A model generated the notes under the pieces. The model was not told the DNA's origin, did not search any database, and worked only from the letters and a program-made list of their open reading frames with translations. A stretch of 64,000 nt of DNA, from NCBI GenBank assembly GCA_050084515.1, contig CM114271.1:41044001-41108000 (forward strand). The letters are read 5' to 3'. This document shows positions 20,230 to 64,000 of this stretch, in pieces; within the stretch, counting starts at the first letter, position 1; every line of letters begins with the position of its first letter. A program made the position numbers and the translations under genes. The DNA comes from Blasia pusilla (taxonomy: Eukaryota).

Positions 20230-22330
20230 AAAATTACGACATAGTCATTGTATGAATTTTTCTGAGGGATTAGGGGTACAAACTTCCCATGGTTTTGGGG
20301 TGGTAAAATACCCTTCTTGTGCAGGGCTAAAGATATGCTCTATTTGAGTTGGTCTAATAAGTATAGCGTACCATTCTCAAGACATCCTTTTTGATTTAGG
20401 AGCGAGTGTAATCCTTGACGTTAGGGGAGATATTGTAGTTGGATGTAGGATTATGGAAAGGAGATATTGAGCCATGTGTCTTTTTGATATAGATATCCAA
20501 TGGGGGTGTTTCATCGATGTAGACTATGACTTGATAGGAGTTGATTGTTTGAGTCTAGCAAGAGCATGCAATTCATGTGCAATATTGCACACACATATGA
20601 TTACAACTCTAGTAGAGTCATATGATGTGTTGGTAGGGAGTATGATGTTGTATCCTATTGGATTTATCTTGGATTTTTATGAGGAGAGAGTTTCCTTTGA
20701 ACTAGGGTGAAATGATGGTAGGATGAGCTAAGTACCCATTTAATTTGATAGGCATAGTGATGGTCCCTAAGGAGATAGCATGACCAGATTGGCAACATTC
20801 AATGAAAATATTAGCTTCCTAAGAGAGTTGTTGGAGGGTAAGATTCATATAGTGGACATCCTTCTAGAGGATTGTCCCATGGAGGGATAAGCCATGATGA
20901 GTGTCTCTTACCATGATGCCAATATCTCTTCATTGTTAGGGTGTAAGAGGATTCCTTTTGAGTATTGCATATGAGCTTGTGGGGCATGTGTAGTGCCATG
21001 CATTTATTCCCAAGCAAGAAGAGTTAGACAACACTTATGCTTTTGGAATGGTGATGTCAACTCTCTCGAAAGCCAAGCTCGTTGTGTGGTAGTATCTAAA
21101 GAGGGGTGTGAGAGTGTTGGATATTTTTAGAGGAATGAGCATGGGGTTGGATATAGTGTTTTAGGATGATATACAGATAAAATAAAGTCTACAGATTGAG
21201 AGAGATAAGATAAGAGTACACATAGAATATACATTAGATGTTGTCTATTCCAATTGCATACAGATTGGAGCATATTGGGGCCCAACTAGGAGCAATGGTC
21301 ATTATGAGAGATGATGAAGGAATGGAGTTTATTTTGGCTTATGCGAGGTAATCGAGCAATGCTTTAGAGGCAAAGTACAACTCATAAAAGTTAGAATTTT
21401 TGGCTTTAATGTGGACCGTGGTACATTTGAGATGTTATTAGTGTGGCTTCCCTTTTATGCTCATCATCCATTGACATGGTTGATGGAGTTTAACAAGCTT
21501 AGTAGGTACCTTGCCATGTGGGCTCTATAAATACAAGAGTATGATTTTCAAGTAGTTCATAGGCAAGATCAGCTAAACCAAGATGTAAATGGTTTTAGTC
21601 ACAATCTGTGTCCAAGCTAAAGAGATAAGAGCACGATGATATAGAGAGAGTGATAAGGAGATGATATCAGATTGACATGCATTTGCCTCTTTATGTTTGT
21701 GGATAATGGCATGTCACCAAGATGCATCAACTTTACTAGAAGGATCAAATGACGAGTTCTCAAATATGGATGCCAATAAGGAGGTGAAGCGTAGTCGTGA
21801 TGTCCATGATCATAAGGAGATTGTGGAGTACTTACATACTAGTGTCATAACAAGCATAGTGAGTGTTAGGGAGAGGGAGCAAATTCTGTAGAGAACTTAG
21901 AGGTTCATTTGAGATCAATTGCAAGGGGATACATATTTTACACGTGTGAGAAGATAGTAGAGCGTAGATGGTACCTCATCCTTCCGAACCAGAATTTATT
22001 GTGCAACGTGCCCACGAGGAGTTGGGGCATTTTGGAGTAAGGCATACTTAGATCTTACTCTATGCTTTGTATTGGAGGTGGGACAGATAGATCGGTATTT
22101 AATAGTTTATAGCCAGATGTAAATTATGTGTATGTTTGAGTTTAAGCATATTTTAAACTCCCATCCCATAATTGCACCCTTTGCCAATCATTGCATCAGG
22201 TTATATTTGGAATCTAGACTTTGTAAGACCTTTTCCATTCATGGGATATTATCATATATATATATGTTGGTCATGGTGGATCATTTCTCCTAGTGGACTA
22301 AGTTGGTGGCAGTATCGAGCAAGCCTAATG
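20230..22330 (+). mobile_element. Heavily decayed Gypsy copy A (PR - DNMT motif I remnant - RNase H - integrase; RT deleted)
   Basis: DLGA protease site at 20393; VESYDVLVGSMMLYPIGF (shared with copy C); GVRVLDIFRGMSMGLDIVF*DDIQIK..QIERD at ~21105-21210 (DNMT motifs I-II); FQLHTDWS...AYA...HLRCY, QEYDFQVVHR (RNase H); AHEELGHFGVRH and LHPLPII..WNLDF (integrase). Confidence 0.8.
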
Positions 22331-52399: not shown

Positions 52400-54090
52400 A
52401 AGAAGTTACATAGTATCCACAATTTCCATAGGTGCACATGAAAGAGTTTGCAATAGGCATTTACTTGCTTGCGTCAATTGATTAGTATCACTCAAGGGAT
52501 GAGAGAGGTCCATGACATCTAGGTATGGTATGGGATTCTAGGATAGGAGATGCGGAGATGAGTAGAGGATGTGACACTTCTCCTTTGCACCTTACCTCCA
52601 TCAAGAGATATGTTTGAGTTGGATGAGTGCATTGAGTGAAATGTGGATCAAGAGAGTGTGGCAACTTTGAGCTTTTAAAGAGATGTTACAAGAGTGTTTG
52701 CACCATTAGTGCAATAGAGTACAACATCGCGAAGAAGAGTACAACGATGCGATCGCTAGGGGGTTACTATGAGCATGTATCACAAAGATCCATATCATCT
52801 TATGTGGGTCAACACCAACCAAGACTTATTTGTTGGGTGTGTGCTACATGGAGCTTATCTTTAGGAAGATTGGATTCGTCAGGGTAGTGGATGCGAGTCC
52901 CAACCTTTGGGAGTAGATGAGGCCCAATTAGAATTATTTCAATGTGATTTTTTACAAAAAAATATGGTCATACATAAGCTATTTGTTTTATCCTACACCT
53001 TGAGCTACATGCAAATTGAGTCTCGGAGAGATCCCCAAAGCATGTTGGAGGCCCACATAGGGCCAAAGGTTGTTGGTGGAGGTAGAAGTCAAATGCCTAA
53101 ACAAGTAAATGGAAACTATGGGCTTGAGGCTAGGATGGATGTCTAGATAGATTTAGTTATAACAATGGCATTGAGGTTACCAGATGTTGGGTCTATGGCA
53201 TTGAACTCACATGGAGCAATTAGGGATATGGAGGATGTGGATTGGATGTGCGGGGCTGCATAGATGGAGGAAACTGTGGTTGTTGCAAGTAGAGTTGGAT
53301 TTATAGAGAGGGGAAGCCATGAAAATTACTAGGCTTTCTCAATCATTTATGTTGTCAGAGACGATAAGGACCCCATCAATGGATCTAGATAAGAGTTCTT
53401 AAGACCAAAAAAATACAATTTATCATCTAATACGAGGTCACGATGAGGCTAAGATCAAGACATCTATTTTATGAGTCTTTGGTATAAGCTAAGGCAAAAG
53501 ACTCTTGTAGAGTCCTACAACATCTTGGTTGGAAAATCAGTGTTGTACATGATGGGATTTTTTTAGGACTATTGGGAGGATAAATTGTCCTTAAGCAAGG
53601 ATAGTAGTCTAGTGATCAACAACTTAGCTCGTTGCTAGTGCAATTCACTAGTGGAGTGATCGTGCGATGACCAAGAGATCCTTATTGAAGCACATTTCTT
53701 TGCTAGGGGCATAGGAGTTAGATTGGATGGATACCATTGATTCCATAATTGCACATTGGCAACATCATGGCTATTTGAGTGCGAGACAAGGAGGTGATTT
53801 GGATGACCATTGATCTAGGTTATTTTGGCACATGGCAAGGATCTAGCTTGTGGCATTTGCACAAGCTCTAGTCTCGTTCTCCAACATACTTACACTATGG
53901 AGAATGTACCAAATTTGGGTGATTTCCATTCACGAGTGGTGATGAGTCTATGTCAAGTTGCTACCTAGATCAAGTAGGAAATGTTTTTGGATACAATGAG
54001 CGTGTGTTCAAGAGTACATTGTCCACCCCTTTGGTTGACAAACCTGATGCCCTCAAAGGTTTTAAGGACGGTGGTCACACAATGTGGGTA
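52400..54090 (+). mobile_element. Heavily decayed Gypsy copy B (gag/PR plus DNMT remnant)
   Basis: VESYNILVGKSVLYMMGF..DYWED (~53505-53580) matches copy C downstream of the protease site. TIDL / RLFW / SRSPTY..MENVPNLGDFHSRVV (ENV at 53900) / FLDTMSVCSRVHCPPLWLTNL match DNMT motifs IV-VIII of copies C and D. The 5' boundary is approximate. Confidence 0.72.
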
Positions 54091-54671
54091 TCCAAGCGTG
54101 CATAGACATAAGTTCATGGACATGGACCTCATATGTGTGCAACCTTGCCTCTTTTTTAAGTGATAGAATGGTGTAGTTTTGTCATGCGTCTACTATCTTG
54201 AACGTCAATCCCATGCGGTGTGGAAGCTTGCGTTCAATAGGACACACTCACCTTAGTCTTGATTTGTGTCCATCAGCCTTATATCTCCCCGAGTTTTCAA
54301 CTTGAGCCTATTAACAAGTGAAGTAGAACTTATACGTATGAATACCTTAAAACATTTCGTTGAGATCATCCCTAAGGCACTATATATAGACAAGTTGGAC
54401 TTTTTAAAAATTCACTCAAGATCCATCTAGTTCTGAAGGATATAGGGTGGAGCTTGAGGAGAGGTTTGATATATGTAGGGAGGCTTGAGGGCATCCTAGA
54501 TTTAGCTTGACAATGTTATGCATTATTGAGAGTACCTTTTTTCTTGTGAACAATTTTTACTTAAGACCAACATCATGTTTAGTGCTAATGTGAACTATGC
54601 TGCATATGTGTACGATATATCAAGTTTTATAATATGCCATCTAATGTTTTAACCTTGCACCTACCAATCTT

Positions 54672-55395
54672 TGTCACGACTTTTAGGATAGATTGCTGAG
54701 ATCTAGTAGAGCGCCTCGGAGATATTGGTGGATAGCCTAAGGAGGTTGTTGTGCGCATACACATCACTACAAAACATAGATTGTTGTCACCGAACATACA
54801 CACAAACATGCTTAATCCTATGCTAACTCATGGCATCCAAACAACGAGACGAGAAGTACCAAAAATATCTCAAATAAAATCAATGAAATTTCTCTCAACA
54901 ACTCACATCAAACTCTCCATGGTGTGCACTCTCTCTCTCATGTCAAACCAAACCCATTCTCCAAATGAGAGGCTTGGGCACATAGAAGGCAAGGAGGACA
55001 ATATCTCCGCCGCCTCATGTCAAGAGGTTCAACAAAAGAGAATAAGCTCTCAAGCTCTCTCTGTTGGAGGTATACCCCCTTCCCTCTCCCAAGCTCTCTC
55101 CTCAGTAACCTATGGTTGCACGTCATCTCCTTGGCTCTTGACTTGTTGTAGCGGCTCAAGGACCACTTTCAAAAATGGAAAGTCAACTATACTTCAAATG
55201 GAACTTACCCAAAATAGTAAGTTGCTCTATATGGATCCAAATGAGTCGAAACGAAGGGGAAACCTGGTCTCTCAGGTTACCCATAGCCTTAGCGGGTCAT
55301 CCTTGACCTTGTCACGACTTTTAGGATAGATTAGTGAGATCTAGTGGAGCGCCTTCGGAGATACTTAAGGACAGCCTTATGAGGTCAAGGACGAA
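54672..55395. mobile_element. Rearranged LTR cluster: LTR start (+), inverted remainder of LTR (-), second LTR start (+)
   Basis: 54672-54746 tgtcacgactttt...aggt; 54747-55309 reverse-oriented LTR tgttgtgcgc...ttgacct; 55310 onward tgtcacgactttt...gaggtcaagg. All are homologous to the full LTRs at 58827-59464 and 61545-62186. Confidence 0.85.
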
Positions 55396-58300
55396 GAGGA
55401 AGAGCCTTAGAAGGACGAGGAACTCTAGAGAGTTCAACCCGTTTACATCATGGAACGGCATGTTTTTGCATTGAGAGGGGGCGCCCATGGACGATTACCA
55501 TGAGTTCTCCCACAGTTATGCCCAAGAGATTGAGGCATAGCGACTCTACTATGACCCACACTATGTGTCATGGACGAAGCCGTTCCCAGATGAGGAGGAG
55601 GAGGAGGAGGAGTCAAGAGAGGCTACTTCCTCTTCCACTAGTGATGTTTTAGGAGGGATAACTTGCATTGGAGCAGATGCACCGTCCAGTTGGGTTCGTC
55701 CCAAGTTCAACCCCGTGGTTGAGTTCTTTGTTGAGTTGCGGACGAGCTACCAAGGGGTATGGACGGAGAAGTTGCGGAGCATCCATGACTTCCAGAGTGC
55801 CTGGGTGAGAGTTTTCGTGAGGCCTATACTCGCTTGCTCCGGTTGATCAGGAAACAGACCAGGCTTCCTCAGTCTTTCACGTTGTTCGAGACAATGAGGA
55901 CCCCATCGATGGGTCCGGATCAGAGTTCCCGTAGAGTTGATGATGTTGGTGTGCATGCACGGAGGACAATGGGAGAAGCGAGTGCGACGACTCTTGTTGC
56001 TGATGCTCAGGAAGAGCATGTGTCGAGCACGTTGTTGGGGGCGGCCACTATTGTATACCGCGCTCTTTTCTTTTTTTCTTCTGATGTTATGATGTTGGGA
56101 GATACACCCGACGAGGTTTTTTGGCTGGCCACTATGCTATATGAGCGTGGAGTTGGTATTCGAGCTTCATACTCAAGAGGGATTATAGAGGAGGTGATGG
56201 ACTTGCCCTTGGAGCCTATGCTCGGTCTGTCCACGTCAGATTCATGGTAGGCTGCGGCTGTTAGGATGGCGGAGATGCTCGCTAGACGCGTGCTAGAGCG
56301 TGCCATGGCTGCTCCTGGTGCTGTATTACAGGATAACCAGGGAGAGGTCTCATAGTTGGTGAGTCAAGCATATATAATTTTTAGTCCGCAGAGTGTTCCG
56401 TTGGATTTGGGAGCGCAACCCTTGATATTGGATAAAGCGACATTCAGAGGATTGGGCTTGACGAGAGCCGTTGTGGAGCGTTGTCTGTTCAAGATACAGA
56501 CATCCTTGGGTGGAGCAAGTACCATATAGTATATCACCGGACAGAAGGTCGTGGTGAGGATTCGCTCGGGTTATCCTACAGATGAGTCCGTGGTGCGAGC
56601 CAAGGCTATAATGATCGATGTAGAGTCTTACGACGTCTTGGTTGATGGAGCAGTGTTGTACTAGATGGGGTTTTCCCCAGATTAATAGGAGGATTCAATA
56701 TCCTATAGAACACGATGACATACCAGTGATGGACGACTTTGTTCATTATCCGTTTGATTCACAGATGAAGTGATTGAGCGATGGCCAAGAGAGATGGCGA
56801 CCTTAACAGCATTTAGCAGTGCCATCACTTGGCCTAGTGATTTGATTGAGGGACATGTCAATGGAGGGGATACTCTCGTTCTTGACATTTATATGGAGAG
56901 GAGTGTCATGGTAGCCGCATCAGTCCGTGGAGGAGAGGTGCCACTATGGGGCTCGAGTGAGGAGCTCCGATGTTTATCCGATGAGCACGTGCAGACGCCA
57001 TGGAGTGAGGCGTTTGCACGAGAGCGTGACGGGTTAGAGGAACCCGAGGTAGCCATGATTGCTACTATGGACACCACCGTGATTGTGTGGTGCATCCCAC
57101 AGGAGGGTATCCGTGAGCTGGATCTCTTGGGAGGGATCGACACTGGTTTAGCTACTGTTTTCCAGCAGGAGTGTGCGTGCATCAGTACCTATACATTGAG
57201 ATTGATGATGTTGCGAGGCGCGCTTCACTCCATCATGTGGCGCAATTACGCTTCCAATTTCCCGACTTGTTGTATGCGTCCTCCATGCAGGGGTACCAGA
57301 GTTCCCTACCGAGGGACATTTTATTGTTGGGGGCGCAGGACTTGGAGTAGGTAGGGACCATTGACTTGGTCATTGCTGGTTGGCCGTGTCAGAATCAGTC
57401 GAGTACTGGATGAGATAGTGGATTAGCAGACTCTCGGTCCAAGTTGTTTTGGGAGATGATGCGGATCTTGCGACATTTACAAGAGCATCAATCTTGTTCT
57501 CCAACATACATTTTGGAGAATGTGCCGATTTTGGGCAATTCGAGGTCCCGCGTGGTGACGAGTGCACATCAAGTGCGCGCATGGATTGGCCCCACAGGTA
57601 TTGTGAGATGCGGCGAGTGTAGGTTCACGAGCACATCGCCCGTATCTTTGATGGACCAACTTGGTACCACATGTTGCGGAGGGCATATACGAGAGTGGAG
57701 CGCCCCTCCCATTTGTTGGTGGATTCTATTCTGGATCCAGGTTGTCAATCAAAGGCAGTGAGGCACAATGATCGATGGCCATTGACTATGGTCAATAGGA
57801 TTGGCATGCCACGAGCAGCCTTTCCCACATTGGTGAGTTTTCCCGCTTCTTATGCATTCAAGGAGGTCGGGCCTGTCTTGGTTTGGGATAACCATGTACA
57901 TTGGTTGGTGGAGCCCAACGCCGATGAGCGAGAGCAAGCAATGGGATTCCCCACAAGAGTGACGGAAGTACCTTCATTATCAGAAACATCACAACGTCAC
58001 GTCTTGGGTAAGGCAATGGACTTGAACTGCTTCACATGGAATTTTAGCTTAGGAGTAGCTGAGCAACGTCATTTGAGATTATAACATATTACAATAGTTG
58101 CGTTGGTCAGCCCCATGCCTACCAAGACGGTTGAGGCAGTGGCTGGGGGCAAGACCCGAGGAGATTGATACACCAAGGGTGATCAAGAGAGACACCCTTG
58201 GACTTCTTGGGATGTTTTGCACGTATGTCGGGAGATGATAGCCACAACATCGAGCGTGATTTTGGGTACTACACGTGAAGATCAGAGTTTGCAGTTGGCT

Positions 58301-58826
58301 GCAAGGGTGCAATTGAGTTATATTATCCGAGACGGGGTTGCACTATAGCAACCACCGACACCCGCGCCAGAGAGTTCTACCGTAGTCACAATGGAGACTT
58401 GGGAGCCATACATGGGCCCTAAGTTGAGTGGAGGAGAGCGGTGCCGGATACACCAGTTCCTTAGGAGTTATAGGAGTTGTTTTTAATTTAGCATGCATGA
58501 TTTGGGTACGCTGAAGGGTCCAGGGATCCGCATAGAATAGTCGAGTGACACGCCGATCTTCCGAAAACCCTACAGGTATAGGGACATGGAGAGGGCTCTG
58601 ATTCAGAGTAGGAGTCAAGACATGGTTGGAGGAGGACTAGTGGAGATGTTGCATGGAGAGTATGCATCTGCCACTGTCATGCCTGCCAAGAAGGATATGC
58701 ATGGCAACTGGATGGATAGGCGGATGTGTGGAGATTACCGACCTATCAATCGACATACGAAGTCCGATAGGTATGCCATGCCCACCCTTGAGGAGATCTT
58801 TGATGCTATTGGGCATGCAAAGGTCT
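55310..58826 (+). mobile_element. Gypsy copy C: truncated 5' LTR, gag, protease, DNMT, 5' part of RT; broken by insertion of copy D
   Basis: Gag-like GESFREAYTRLLRLI (~55805-55850); protease LDLGAQPLIL at 56401; DNMT ~57100-58050; RT start PIFRKPYRY...EYASATVMPAKKD...RRMCGDYRPINRHTKSDRYAMPTLEEIFDAIGHAKV ends abruptly at the LTR at 58827. Frameshifts and stops throughout. Confidence 0.9.
57100..58050 (+). pseudogene. C5 cytosine DNA methyltransferase domain (DNMT3-like) within Gypsy pol, copy C
   Basis: Motifs in canonical order: I LDLLGGIDTGL (57118), II YLYIEID, III LPRDI, IV IDLVIAGWPCQ (PCQ 57384-57392), V GLADSRSKLF, VI YILENV (57516-57524), VIII DAASVGSRAHRPYL*WTNL, IX EPNADEREQAMGFP, X RHVLGKAMD. 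Interrupted by a few frameshifts and stops. Confidence 0.9.
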
Positions 58827-59464
58827 TATCGTGCGCATACACATTGCTACACAACATACATCGTTGTCATGAACACACACACAAACACACACGATCCCAT
58901 GCTCACTCATGGCATCCATACATAGAAGCAAGAAGTACCAAAATATCTCCAATAAAATAAGATCCAATCTCTCTCTACACTATCTCACATCATAGCTCTA
59001 AAAGGTGTGCACTCTCTCTCATGTCAAACCAAACCCACTCTCCTAATGAGAGGCTTGGGTTACACTCACAAGGCAAGGGACCATAGCTTTGCCGCCTTAT
59101 GCCAAGAAGTTAGACAAAGAGAGAATGAGCTCTCAAGGTCTCTGTCTTGGAGATATACCCCCTTCCCTCTCCCAAGCCCTCTCGACGGTAACCTATGCTC
59201 GCAGGTCACCTCCTTGGCTCTTGACCAGCTGTAGCGGGTAAAGGACCACTTCCCAAAGTGGAAAGTCAACTATCCCCAATATGGATACTTACCAAAAATA
59301 GTAATATATATATATGGCTCCAAATGAGCCGAAACGAAGGGAAAACCTGCTCTATCAGGTTTTTCGGGGCCTCAACAGGTCATCCTCAACCTCTTGGACC
59401 TATCCTCCACTACTTGTACATACGCTTTGCTAGATCCCACCGATCTATCCTAACAGTCGTGACA
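58827..59464 (-). mobile_element. 3' LTR of Gypsy copy D (~638 bp)
   Basis: On the minus strand it runs tgtcacgac...gcgcacgata. It is homologous end to end with the solo LTR 61545-62186 and lies downstream of the PHD-ending pol of copy D. Confidence 0.85.
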
Positions 59465-59780
59465 ACTGTTGTGCGCATACATATCGCTACACAACATACA
59501 TCGTTGTCATCGAACACACACACAAACACACAAGATCCCATGCTAACTCATGGCATCCATACATAGAGGCAAGAAGTACCAAAATATCTCCAATCGCCCT
59601 CCTAGCTGGTGGTTAGGTCCCCCTAACTCCAAATAGCCATCTATCCCTACCTACCACGACATACATCTCTAAGACGCTAAGACCAGAAAGGCCAGGTGCT
59701 CATGTGGCCCCATCATTAGTCGCCTTCATATCATCCATGTCACAGAAAAAGTCGAAATCAAAACCTACCTAGTATCTCCT

Positions 59781-59925
59781 CTATGTACATCTGGGACACA
59801 TCCATCGTCCCCGAGGAACCCTAGTGAGAGGTGGCGTCAAACATGCCATATGCCAACCTCTCGAACATCCATCACATACTAGCATCGTGGCTGCACCACG
59901 AGCAGAACCACACAACAAACAACGC
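59781..59925 (-). other. PHD finger (C4HC3) at the integrase C-terminus of copy D
   Basis: CLLC...MLVCDGCSRGWHMACLTPPLTRVPRGRWMCPRC, with all eight zinc ligands present, followed by a stop. Confidence 0.92.
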
Positions 59926-61544
59926 AAGCCTACAAGAACTAATGTGGAGCTCGGATCTACTGTACCATCAATGTTAGGAAGGTGGCATGGCGCACAATTA
60001 CGTACATGGTCCTTCCATACCATACCATCGCGTCCCTCCAACAAGAGAACACCGGATGGCTAAACGTCATGCACTCTTATGATAGTGCACCCTCCAATCA
60101 CATCCAACGTCGTCAATTCCGTCTGCTGCAAGTACACATAATCTCCTTGATGAAACCCTCCGGATAGTCACATACGTCAACGTATCTCGATGCTGTGCAA
60201 TCGCCAAGTTCTCGAACGCCATGGGCATCACTCTACGAAACAACTCAGCCATGTGAGAACATGCTTGCATCCATACATCTGGGTCATCAAGGTCCAACAC
60301 CTCACCAACATCTCGACGAATGGCCGCAGGTAAATCTGGCTCTCGACCATAAAGTAGCAAGTACGGTGAAAAAGACGCTAAGAATGCCTGCATGCTGAAT
60401 CTGTATCCCATAGCCAACCACGGAAACTCGAGGTGCCAATCTCCTAGGTGACCTCTCTGCAAGCCATACTTGCGTTAACCCCTCTTCACCGTCTACACAA
60501 CTCTCTCCGCTAATCCATCCGCCTCGGGATGATCTCGCGAAGTCGTGCGGTGGTCGATCAGCACCTGATCACACAAGGCCTGGAACTCATCGCGAAACTC
60601 GGTATCCTGGTCTGTCAACACCTCAGCCGGTACGCCATAATGACTCATCACTATGTCAAGGAAGGCATAAGCTACTCCCTCACTCGCTTTGTCAAGAAAT
60701 GCAACCAACTCGATCCACTTTGGAAAGTGATCAACCATCACCAACACATAACGATTGTGACGCTCCGTCAAAGGCAAAGGTCTTGCAAAATCCAAACTCC
60801 ATCCATACCCTAAGCCCATGATTGGTAATGGATACAACTGTGGAGTCGGAGAATTGAACGATGCTCGGACCCGATCACACACCATGCACCTGGCAACAAA
60901 CTGCTGAACATCAGTCTGCATGCCTCGCCTCCAATATTGAATCTAGAGCTAGTTGTACGTCCGCTTCATCTCAAAGTGATCCAACTCCTCGTGGGCATGC
61001 TCCACTAGTTGTTCTCTCTCTGAAGGATACAGCACTACGTGTTCTCTATCATCCTCCCCAACACTCTAAACATATGTCCCCTCCCAACGGAATTGTCTGG
61101 CCTGTTGTAGGATCCGATCCCGCTCTCTAGCACCCACGGTGCTCGCAACGCTGCCAGTTCAAAAGTACTCCAAGACTACTCCATCATCATGAATATCTCG
61201 GCCACCTGCCATCTCCTCACAGGCCTTGGGATCCAAGGACTCTCCACTAGACCTCGCCATCGAAGTCTCCACACTCTGGCTCTCCATAGCCAACATGCCT
61301 AAATAGGCTGACGCGTGCCATCCTGGCTTTGACTCCTCATCACTCTCTCCATGCCATCGAGCTCAAGTCGTATCTCGCTGACTCGGGCATGGGTTATGAC
61401 TCAACCCATCTGCATCCTAGTTGAGCGTCATAAGTCTATGAACCACATGAAAATCATACTCCTGCAACAATAGAGCCCATCTCGCAAGCTTCCTTGTAAG
61501 CTTGTCATACTCCATCAACCACTTCAATGGTTGATGATCAATGA

Positions 61545-62186
61545 TGTCACGTCTTTTAGGATAGATCGGTGAGATCTAGTAGAGCGCCTTTGTGAGTAGT
61601 GGAGGACACGCTCAATAGGTCGAGGATGAAGTGCTGAGGCTCCGGGAAACCTGAGAGAGCACGTTTCCCCTTCGTTTCGGCTCATTTGGAGCCATATTGA
61701 GGAACTTACTATTTTAGGCAAGTACCATCTTGAGTATATGATCGACTTTATATTTTTGGTAAGTATCCCTTGACCTCCTACATCAGGTCAAGAGCCAAGA
61801 AGGTGACTTGGGAGAATAGGTTACCATGCACAGAGCTTAGGAGAGGGGAGGTGTATACCTCAAGGAGAGAGAGCTTTAGAGCTCATTCTCTCTTTGTTGA
61901 ACCTCTTGGCATGAGGCGGCGGAGCTATGGTCCCTTGCCTTGTGAGTGTAACCCAAGCCTCTCATTAGGAGAGTAGGTTTGGTTTGACATGAGAGAGAGT
62001 GGATACCTTTGAGAGCTATGGTGTGAGATGGTGTAGAGAGAGATTGGATCTTACTTTAATTGGAGATATTTTAGTACTTCTTGTCTCGTTTTTTGGATGC
62101 CATGAGTTAACATGGGATCATGCGTGCTTGTGTGTGTGTTCGGTGACAACGATGTATGTTGTGTAGCGATGTGTATACGTACGACA
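61545..62186 (+). mobile_element. Solo LTR (642 bp) of the same family, inserted in the RNase H of copy D, with 4-bp TSD
   Basis: tgtcac...acgaca flanked by atga on both sides. Removing the LTR plus one atga restores the reading GTPFTIIIDHQPLKW on the minus strand. Confidence 0.92.
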
Positions 62187-63299
62187 ATGATGATGGTAAA
62201 GGGGGTGCCAAATAAGTAACACTTGAAATGCGTGACAGCCCACACTACAGCCAAGCACTCATCCCAATGCCACTCGTGATCCACCTTGGTCAGCAGGGTT
62301 AGCGACTTTGCAATCAAACAGAATCCCTTGACGTACCGCCGATAGAAGTTTGCCAATCCCATGAATGCGCGAACACGGTTCGCATCTGTAGGGCGTGGAA
62401 TGCGTGAGATAACCTCTACCTTCGTTTGCTAAACACCAAGGCCCCTTGGGTATATCGTATGACCCAAGTACTCAATCTGGTCGTAGAAGAACTTGCACTT
62501 GCTTGGATGTAGCTTCAACCCATGTAATTGCAATTGTCGAAACACCTCCTCTAGATGTTGCTCATGCTCCTAAACCGTGGCGCTAAAGACTACAATGTCA
62601 TCAATATAACACTTAGCAAAATCCAGACCAGCCAAGATCCTATCCATGACCCTCTGAAATTCAGCCGAGGCGTTCTTTAACCAAAATGGTAAGAACCGCC
62701 ACTGGTACAAACAATCCATCCCGTGAGGATTGATGCCCCAAAATGCCGTCTTCTTCGTGTCCTCCAATCTGGTAGGCAGTTGATGGTATCCGCCTCGCAA
62801 ATCCAATGAACTGAAGACCTTTGCGTGACCAATCACATCAAAGATCTCCTTAGGGGTGGGCATGGCATACCTATCGGAGGAACTGATGTATCCGGTGCCG
62901 CTCTCCTCCTGTCAACTTAGGGCCCATATCTGGCTCCCAAGTCTCCATCGTGACTACGGTAGGACTCTCTGGTGCGGGTATCGGTGGTTGATATGGTACA
63001 ACCCCGTCTCGAACAACAATACTGGTTGCTCTCCTACAGCCAACTGCAAACTCTGATCTCCTCCACGTGTAGTACCCTGAATCACGCTCGATGCTGTGGC
63101 TATCATCTCCTAGCGTACCTGCAAAACATCCCAAGAAGTCCAAGGGTGTCTCTTCCGATCTCCCATGGTGTGTAGATCTCCTCGGGTCTCGCCCCCAACC
63201 ACTACCTCTACCGTCTTTGTAGGCATGGGGCTCACCAACGCAACCGCTGTGATCTGTCGCGATCTCATATGGCGCTGCTCAACCACTCCTAAGCTGAGG

Positions 63300-64000
63300 A
63301 TCCATGTCAAGCAGTTCAGGTCCATCGCCTGACCCAAGACATGGCGTCATGATGCCTCTGACACTGACGGTACTGCCGTCACTCTTATGGGAAATCCCAT
63401 CGCTCGCTCTCTCTTGTCGGCATTGGGCTCCACCAACCACTGAACCTAGTCATCCCCAACCAAGCCAAGACCGGCCTCCTTGTATGCATAGGAAGCGGGA
63501 AAACTCACAAACGTGGGCAAGGTTGCCCGCGGCCTGCCTACCTTGTTGACCATAGTCAACGGTGGTCGATCATCGTGCCTCACTGCCTGTGATCGACAAT
63601 CAGGATCTAGAATGGAATCCACTAACAAATGGGAGGGGCACTCCACTCTCACATACGCCATTGGTAACACCGCATGGGGCACCAAGTTGGTTCACCATAG
63701 ACACGGGCGATGGGCTCTAGAACCTACACTCGCCGCATCCAAGAACACTGCTCGGCCAACCCAGGCACGCACCTGATGAGCACTCGTCACCACCCGTGAC
63801 CTCAAGTCTCCTAAGATTAGCACATTCTCCAGAATGTAAGATGGAGAACGAGACTGGTGCTCCTGCAACTGCCGTAAGACCCTCAACATCTCCCAAAACA
63901 ACCTGGACCGAGTGTCAGCTAGCCCATTGCCTCGTCCAACACTCGATTGGCCCTGACATGGTCAACCGGAGATGACCAAATCAATGGTCCTTACCCGCTC
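63300..64000 (-). pseudogene. DNMT3-like methyltransferase domain (motifs IV-X) in copy D
   Basis: IDLVISG*PCQGQSSVGRGNGLADTRSRLFWEM...YILENV...FLDAASVGSRAHRPCLW*TNL...EPNADKRERAMGFPI...RHVLGQAMD, collinear with copy C. Confidence 0.9.

Follow-up and report, generated by a model that had tools for sequence, protein, structure and literature searches.

We analysed a 64,000-nucleotide stretch of Blasia pusilla DNA (contig CM114271.1, positions 41,044,001 to 41,108,000 of the forward strand; hereafter the window). Its last part, read on the minus strand from position 64000 to 59781, holds one collinear copy of a Ty3/Gypsy element, here called copy D, in which a DNMT3-like cytosine methyltransferase (DNMT) domain, reverse transcriptase (RT), RNase H (RH), integrase (INT) and a PHD finger follow one another. 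We consider it probable, with some reserve, that copy D is a decayed, nested element of the Gypsy-DNMT3 kind, resembling long terminal repeat (LTR) retrotransposons, whose PHD finger would tether integration and whose DNMT3-like domain would methylate the insert. Elements of the Gypsy-DNMT3 kind have already been published; the constant association with a PHD finger does not seem to have been treated in print before.

The domain order proposed for this strand by an earlier reading of the bare DNA (the sequence-only reading) was confirmed by Pfam searches of the minus-strand open reading frame (ORF) pieces and by tblastn with intact relatives. The copy D features given here are all located on the minus strand. 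In the C5 cytosine methyltransferase domain, which is DNMT3-like (63269..64000), the stretch from motif IV (PCQ) to ENV and RxR is covered. This domain matched DNA_methylase (PF00145; E 3.6e-7; 30.3 bits, cut-off 22) and was 46.5% identical to residues 1019-1261 of ORF1 of the intact relative L056. RT (62264..62911; RVT_1, E 1.5e-12) was 61% identical to residues 143-349 of L056 ORF2. RNase H (RT_RNaseH, E 5.7e-6) is divided by an insertion. Its upstream part (62189..62260) aligned with residues 854-877 of protein P0032, and its downstream part is followed by a linker, the integrase zinc-binding domain and the integrase core (together 60145..61545; 58% identity to L056 ORF2 residues 449-907). 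The integrase core was recognized as rve (E 4e-10), and Integrase_H2C2 scored 21.1 bits, under its cut-off of 25.5. Next comes the C-terminal SH3/GPY-F-like module of integrase (GDYVYLQQ...; 60063..60167), identified from the translation and from an alignment with 13 natural ORFs. Copy D thus retains the Pol order RT-RH-INT; the protease (PR) upstream was seen in a neighbouring copy, copy C, and in relatives.

The PHD finger (59787..59921; PF00628, E 3.8e-12; 46.5 bits, cut-off 24) is intact, as the sequence-only reading had stated. All eight C4HC3 ligands can be read at 59921-59787 with the spacing C-x2-C-x11-C-x2-C-x4-H-x2-C-x14-C-x2-C, and after one further residue the polyprotein ends at a stop codon (59783-59781). 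The finger lies directly behind the SH3/GPY-F-like module and ends the polyprotein, and so holds the place at which chromoviruses carry a chromodomain. No match to the Chromo family was obtained in the Pfam scans of copy D or of the scanned relatives.

Although the PHD finger itself is intact, copy D is a dead element. It carries eight internal in-frame stops, one frameshift and one 643-bp insertion, and its 5' part is cut off by the window end. The DNMT domain, truncated upstream of motif IV by that end, contains four of the stops and still has PCQ, ENV and AHRP. A fifth stop lies in the linker after DNMT (63112-63110), two lie in integrase (60495-60493 and 60477-60475), and a TAG stands between the SH3-like module and PHD (60062-60060). 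A one-base shift puts the SH3-PHD part in another frame than the integrase core; it is located near 60145-60160 and adjoins a gap of ~7 codons. Two of these lesions are private to copy D according to reads from source-species runs (≥90% likeness): 474 DNA and 27 RNA reads skipped 646 bases at the RNase H insertion (61545-62187), and at the stop between SH3 and PHD another letter was present in 968 of 1000 DNA reads and in all 68 RNA reads with the first mate on the plus strand.

The sequence-only reading had named in advance two outcomes that would speak against it, namely a PHD finger out of frame with integrase and DNMT and PHD never occurring together in intact elements. Neither was observed. 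In 13 natural ORFs from relatives, which include Marchantia and Calypogeia proteins, integrase core, SH3-like module and PHD are read in one uninterrupted frame, and the 11 of these ORFs that end normally do so 0-7 residues past the last PHD cysteine. DNMT and PHD were found together in the intact elements P0063, L056 and L053. P0063 is a single ORF of 2811 amino acids (aa) with the order PR-DNMT-RT-RH-INT-PHD, and P0032 (1516 aa) extends from DNMT through PHD. L056 consists of ORF1 (1369 aa) and ORF2 (1047 aa), which share one frame and are separated by a TAG. The metagenome loci L056 and L053 both have, in a single frame, the layout gag (with a CCHC knuckle)-PR-DNMT, TAG, RT-RH-INT-PHD. In P0063, P0032 and L056 the DNMT domain lies inside the polyprotein without introns.

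These relatives bear directly on the idea that the combination arose by a nesting accident, in which separate overlapping insertions, or the capture of a piece of a host gene, would have brought DNMT, Gypsy core and PHD together without meaning for the family. The surroundings of copy D would suit such an origin, for nesting is heavy (copy D within copy C, a solo repeat within copy D) and copy D is full of stops. The accident is nevertheless refuted by the single-ORF relatives P0063 and P0032, by the intact loci L056 and L053, and by the co-occurrence counts given below. Given, in addition, a domain order conserved across dozens of proteins and purifying selection on both DNMT and PHD, we regard it as extremely improbable.

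A representative library gave 1123 DNMT matches, and the protein counts are based on the best 150. Among these, 36 DNMT-bearing proteins reach the integrase C-terminus, and PHD was present in 34 of the 35 that were sufficiently long. Conversely, DNMT was found upstream and on the same strand at 26 of the 30 PHD sites (L041 counted twice) that had at least 5.5 kb of upstream DNA. The other four sites (L003, L018, L073 and L074) also lack gag and protease and hence represent truncated copies; we considered them as DNMT-less relatives and rejected this for the same reason. The pairing of DNMT and PHD is close to obligatory.

Both domains are under purifying selection. For the pair L053 and L056 (78% nucleotide identity), the ratio of nonsynonymous to synonymous substitution rates (Ka/Ks) was 0.14 for DNMT and 0.07 for PHD, and 0.04 and 0.03 for RT and the integrase core, respectively. 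The full C4HC3 pattern was kept in 126 of 140 proteins with a PHD match. In L056 ORF1 the catalytic methyltransferase motifs are intact and in unrearranged order (I, FAGIGTG; IV, PCQ; VI, ENV; VIII, AHRPR). The best solved relatives of the DNMT domain were DNMT3A, DNMT3B and DNMT3C (E about 2-3e-6), ahead of bacterial enzymes.

The stop between DNMT and RT is itself conserved. In copy C an in-frame TAG CAA CCA (58346..58354, plus strand) marks the border of gag-PR-DNMT and RT-RH-INT-PHD and is a candidate leaky stop; the same border stop is found at 5083-5091 of L056 and 4661-4669 of L053. Of 37 copies that could be aligned, 29 have TAG or TAA with a following CAR at this border. The full CAR-YYA context is present in L056, L053 and copy C, and 26 more read CAA-CCC or CAA-CCT. 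CAR-YYA is the leaky-stop context of the tobacco mosaic virus type. The conservation suggests programmed readthrough, which would place DNMT in an abundant upstream product. With a leaky stop, the Gag-PR-DNMT product, and with it the DNMT3-like domain, would then probably be over-produced. P0063 and P0032 are without the border stop. In the bryophyte-type branch, DNMT and PHD are probably not found in one mature protein. Reader and writer are likely to be distinct proteins of one particle rather than one enzyme, since the stop codon and probably protease cleavage as well separate them.

This arrangement is relevant to another explanation, according to which the PHD finger does not serve targeting. 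It would instead be an ADD-like module that works with the DNMT, sensing H3 unmethylated at K4 (H3K4me0) and licensing methylation, or it would recruit host silencing or chromatin factors after integration. Host DNMT3 uses its PHD-like ADD domain in this manner, and Pfam detected neither an ADD nor a PWWP domain in P0063 or L056 ORF1. DNMT and PHD are also co-inherited in both domain orders described below (the 34 of 35 long proteins), and the DNMT tree divides by architecture with a support of 97. The finger, however, is always fused to the C-terminus of integrase and never to DNMT, and in the bryophyte-type branch a stop codon and ~1000 residues lie between the two. Moreover, a Gypsy element with PHD and without DNMT, Gypsy-7a_cRei, has been reported (Fig. 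6 legend, PMC9940879). We therefore consider the ADD-like role unlikely.

Which histone tail the finger might recognize can be judged from its solved relatives. All 60 that were listed are PHD fingers, led by those of CHD4, PHF12, KAT6A, KDM5B, DPF3, PHF21A, ATXR5 and AIRE. The targets of these fingers are H3 with unmodified K4 or the free N-terminus of H3. The best solved relative of the copy D finger was CHD4 (whole-protein E 8.3e-18), which aligned in two PHD stretches; the better-scoring one we take to be its second PHD. The element PHD has a glycine two positions before the zinc-binding histidine, where the H3K4me3 readers BPTF and ING2 have their cage tryptophan. The element PHD thus resembles the H3K4me0 type rather than an H3K4me3 reader.

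A different reading of the same finger is that it recognizes methylated H3K4 or another active mark and steers insertions to promoters or genes, with the DNMT damping the damage or mimicking gene-body CG methylation. The PHD class does include H3K4me3 readers. Furthermore, the alignment of the family shows no conservation, in the N-terminal PHD loop, of the acidic residue with which AIRE-type fingers contact K4me0; this also counts against a simple H3K4me0 model. Yet none of the 60 listed solved relatives is known as a classical K4me3 reader (such as ING, BPTF or TAF3), the cage tryptophan two residues before the histidine is missing, and the copies sit inside other copies of the family, a point weakened by the high copy number. 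Even with the CG methylation described on active gene bodies in Klebsormidium (in the text of PMC5890265), we find this reading quite improbable, more so than the ADD-like role.

In the reading that we prefer, the PHD finger at the integrase C-terminus would tether the intasome to nucleosomes via the N-terminal tail of H3, most likely of H3 unmethylated at K4, that is, in silent chromatin. The chromodomain plays this tethering role in chromoviruses. The DNMT3-like domain would methylate the new complementary DNA (cDNA) or the insertion, as proposed for transposon DNMTs by de Mendoza 2018. A combination of chromatin-targeted integration and self-methylation would be plausible.

The family is abundant and transcribed. 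About one hundredth of a source-species DNA run was read; in it, depth over copy D was mostly ~1000-2400 per strand and rose to ~4,600 over the solo repeat, most reads being 90-95% alike. In three RNA-seq runs, copy D was covered at 14-79 by reads with the first mate on the plus strand and at 0-10 by those on the minus strand. The sign was reversed over copy C and over the antisense solo unit. This strand pattern fits sense transcripts of related copies. In a run index search, no RNA run was listed as carrying exactly copy D.

Related proteins are spread over the green lineage; those with names come from Marchantia polymorpha, Calypogeia fissa, Sphagnum, Closterium (P0200, P0170) and Scenedesmus (P0187, named 'pol'). 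Marchantia polymorpha accounts for 14 of the 25 DNMT matches listed, at 56-75% identity. Many Marchantia polymorpha gene models are fragments of copy D's family (e.g. P0122, P0123, P0005 and P0080-P0085), with names that include 'PHD-type domain-containing protein', 'CCHC-type domain' protein and 'DNA (cytosine-5)-methyltransferase'. DNMT searches and cluster look-ups returned no Klebsormidium proteins, which does not imply absence, as the word-based searches were crowded by long proteins. A tblastn search of phage records with the copy D PHD gave no match.

Two domain orders were found, and PHD occurs in both. In the first, DNMT precedes RT (6 of the 150 best matches); it is the order of the window, of the Marchantia-type copies and of Closterium. 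In the second (RT-RH-DNMT-INT-PHD; 41 of the 150), which is also the type of the Scenedesmus 'pol', DNMT lies between RNase H and integrase, and 21 further N-terminally cut proteins of the same set have DNMT directly before integrase. A DNMT tree was built from 59 proteins with at least 250 aa of DNMT and an integrase core; it is unrooted, and the first order is represented by only seven rows, among which several are near-copies. In this tree the two orders fall on opposite sides of one branch (Shimodaira-Hasegawa-like approximate likelihood ratio test, SH-aLRT, 97). The integrase tree needs two changes of domain order, while its well-supported branches permit one. In second-order proteins (e.g. 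P0174, P0187 and P0284), PHD is not terminal and 300-500 residues lie beyond it; Pfam found no match in this tail in the four that were scanned. The second-order protein P0209 (2155 aa) has a G-patch domain (E 2.7e-7) between DNMT and integrase, and the precomputed list of P0046 contains PF01585.

A wider proposal may be built on this distribution, which we offer as tentative and would not ourselves bet on. The DNMT3-like writer and the integrase-borne PHD reader may form an ancient, co-inherited Gypsy module that spans chlorophytes, charophytes and bryophytes in two domain orders. In streptophytes, a leaky UAG would over-produce the writer, and PHD would remain on the rarer readthrough integrase. 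Such a module would copy the logic of host DNMT3, which joins ADD and methyltransferase, in that it would land on H3K4-unmethylated chromatin and methylate itself. If this were true, the family, being transcribed and present in very many copies, may add to the bryophyte methylome.

The structure around copy D is that of nested copies with split repeats. Repeat B1 (128 bp; 59467..59594, minus strand) begins 186 bp past the stop codon and is 95% identical to 58831-58953. It is followed on the same strand by A2 (59464-58954) and B2 (58953-58826), which together form the 3' end of copy D (58826..59464) and adjoin the broken RT of copy C. The 3' end therefore reads B1-GT-A2-B2, with two bases between B1 and A2; in source-species reads, likewise, 1-2 letters separate the B end from the A start to which it is joined. 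In the relative L058 the repeats are split in the same way, with A1 at the 5' end and B1-A2-B2 after PHD (L058 2705-3041 and 11339-11908). The family's repeats thus have a split, DIRS-like arrangement, A-coding-B-A-B, and solo units are A-B. Two identical flanking LTRs were not seen in L058 or at the copy D 3' end, where the repeats are split; the copy D 5' end lies beyond the window.

The insertion in the copy D RNase H is such a solo A-B terminal-repeat unit (61545..62187, plus strand and hence antisense to copy D). With the A2-B2 unit (58826-59464) it shares 83.6% identity, and it has TG..CA ends and a target duplication of 4-5 bp, (A)TCAT. The 646-base skips in the reads fit a solo unit of 641-642 bases plus one target duplication. 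Copy C (56266..58831, plus strand) comprises protease, DNMT3-like domain, the in-frame TAG and the start of RT, and aligned in tblastn searches with residues 667-1261 of L056 ORF1 and 5-167 of ORF2. It is 81% identical to copy D at the nucleotide level. Copy D is nested in copy C in opposite orientation, because copy C ends at 58831, where copy D ends; at 58827 the reads of other copies continue with RT sequence.

Elsewhere in the window, a further DNMT fragment of the family was found at 53682-54106 (plus strand). A third A-B unit at 54751-55309 (minus strand) lies within 54672-55344 and has short inverted pieces of the A start on both flanks. An older and more distant Gypsy fragment at 20415-22320 (plus strand) extends from protease to integrase with 28-56% protein identity to L056; no PHD or DNMT was detected in it. 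The G+C content of the window varied from 0.31 to 0.54 in 2-kb steps, and the DNMT-Gypsy copies lie in G+C-richer stretches (0.48-0.51).

Several points weigh against the reading of copy D's family as chromatin-targeted and self-methylating. Copy D is dead, and therefore nothing in the window can act. The 80 metagenome loci share few contig-name prefixes and may stand for one or few host genomes, and most of their copies are decayed like copy D. The Ka/Ks values come from a single pair with a Ks of 0.8-2.7, mostly near saturation. The match of the DNMT domain to DNMT3A is modest (E 3e-6, compared with 5e-5 for the bacterial M.HaeIII). Most of the RNA reads stem from other copies, as they are only 90-95% alike. 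Repeated nesting, which the sequence-only reading had taken to fit targeted integration, is uninformative in an extremely high-copy family, and we rejected self-nesting as a sign of targeting. Finally, the kinship with KnitGypsy-Dnmt3, the closest published element, is drawn from shared architecture only, since no Klebsormidium sequence was retrieved.

PHD is a known accessory domain of green-algal LTR retrotransposons, according to the texts of PMC9940879, PMC8557442 and PMC6673714. One such element is REM1 (Perez-Alegre 2005, as cited in PMC6673714 and PMC8557442). In Gypsy-7a_cRei, PHD stands between RNase H and integrase and there is no DNMT (Fig. 6 legend, PMC9940879); here, in contrast, PHD is C-terminal to integrase and paired with DNMT. 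PHD-bearing Gypsy elements of Selaginella, mentioned in the sequence-only reading, were not found; the texts of the plant LTR surveys that were checked do not contain the term 'PHD'. Figures and supplements apart, we found no discussion in the literature texts searched of a DNMT3-like domain paired with an integrase PHD, of the extension of this pairing to bryophytes and chlorophytes, of its two domain orders or of the arrangement with a stop codon. Transposon-borne DNMTs have been reported from dinoflagellates and one charophyte. Our data show the Gypsy-DNMT3 kind to be abundant and transcribed in liverwort-like DNA, reveal that its relatives range from green algae to mosses, and flag many Marchantia gene models as parts of these elements. 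The pairing offers a concrete, testable system for how a retrotransposon might choose chromatin and determine its own epigenetic state.

The published element most like copy D's family is KnitGypsy-Dnmt3 of Klebsormidium nitens, which has DIRS-like repeats with Gypsy domains (Fig. 4c legend; de Mendoza 2018, PMC5890265). We file the family with this kind because the A-coding-B-A-B repeat layout with Gypsy domains matches. According to the text of that paper, the two also share an intronless DNMT3-like domain inside a Gypsy-type polyprotein and purifying selection on DNMT (Ka/Ks <0.2 there, 0.14 here); in our material the split repeats occur in L058 and in the 3' terminal part of copy D. The same paper had already put forward self-methylation by transposon DNMTs. 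The acquisition was placed in the K. nitens lineage (PMC5890265), whereas our elements come from liverwort-like hosts and have relatives across the green lineage. The term 'PHD' is absent from the main text of PMC5890265; Fig. 4c and the supplements may show one.

The concept of a reader-plus-writer toolkit is also in print, in the account of EpiLTRs and DAM-LTRs (bioRxiv 10.64898/2026.05.21.726589). As described in the text of that preprint, EpiLTRs are likewise LTR retrotransposons that join a chromatin reader with a DNA methyltransferase. They differ in having a chromodomain, a DAM domain, associated with N6-methyladenine (6mA), and a DNMT4-related DNMT, and in their hosts, Cymbomonas and Euglena. 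Copy D's family combines PHD with a DNMT3-like domain and has no DAM domain or chromodomain. A distant relative, P0062 (1926 aa, from a marine metagenome cluster), is a PHD-bearing Gypsy polyprotein with a 550-aa stretch without assignment between RNase H and integrase. Behind its PHD, a D12-class N6-adenine methyltransferase was matched below threshold (20.5 bits; cut-off 22), and P0062 is possibly a PHD version of DAM-LTRs. One member of its cluster is filed as a protein of a Rhodopirellula metagenome-assembled genome; this bacterial label looks like a binning error.

With chromoviruses, copy D's family shares a small histone-tail reader at the integrase C-terminus, placed after an SH3/GPY-F-like module and with a presumed tethering role. 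In chromoviruses this reader is a chromodomain and there is no DNMT, whereas here it is a PHD zinc finger accompanied by a DNMT. The host enzymes DNMT3A and DNMT3B with their ADD domain resemble the element in that a DNMT3-type domain and a PHD finger of H3K4me0 type belong to one genetic unit. In the element, by contrast, the finger is carried by integrase, far from the methyltransferase, which has no PWWP or ADD domain, and in the bryophyte-type branch a stop codon stands between them.

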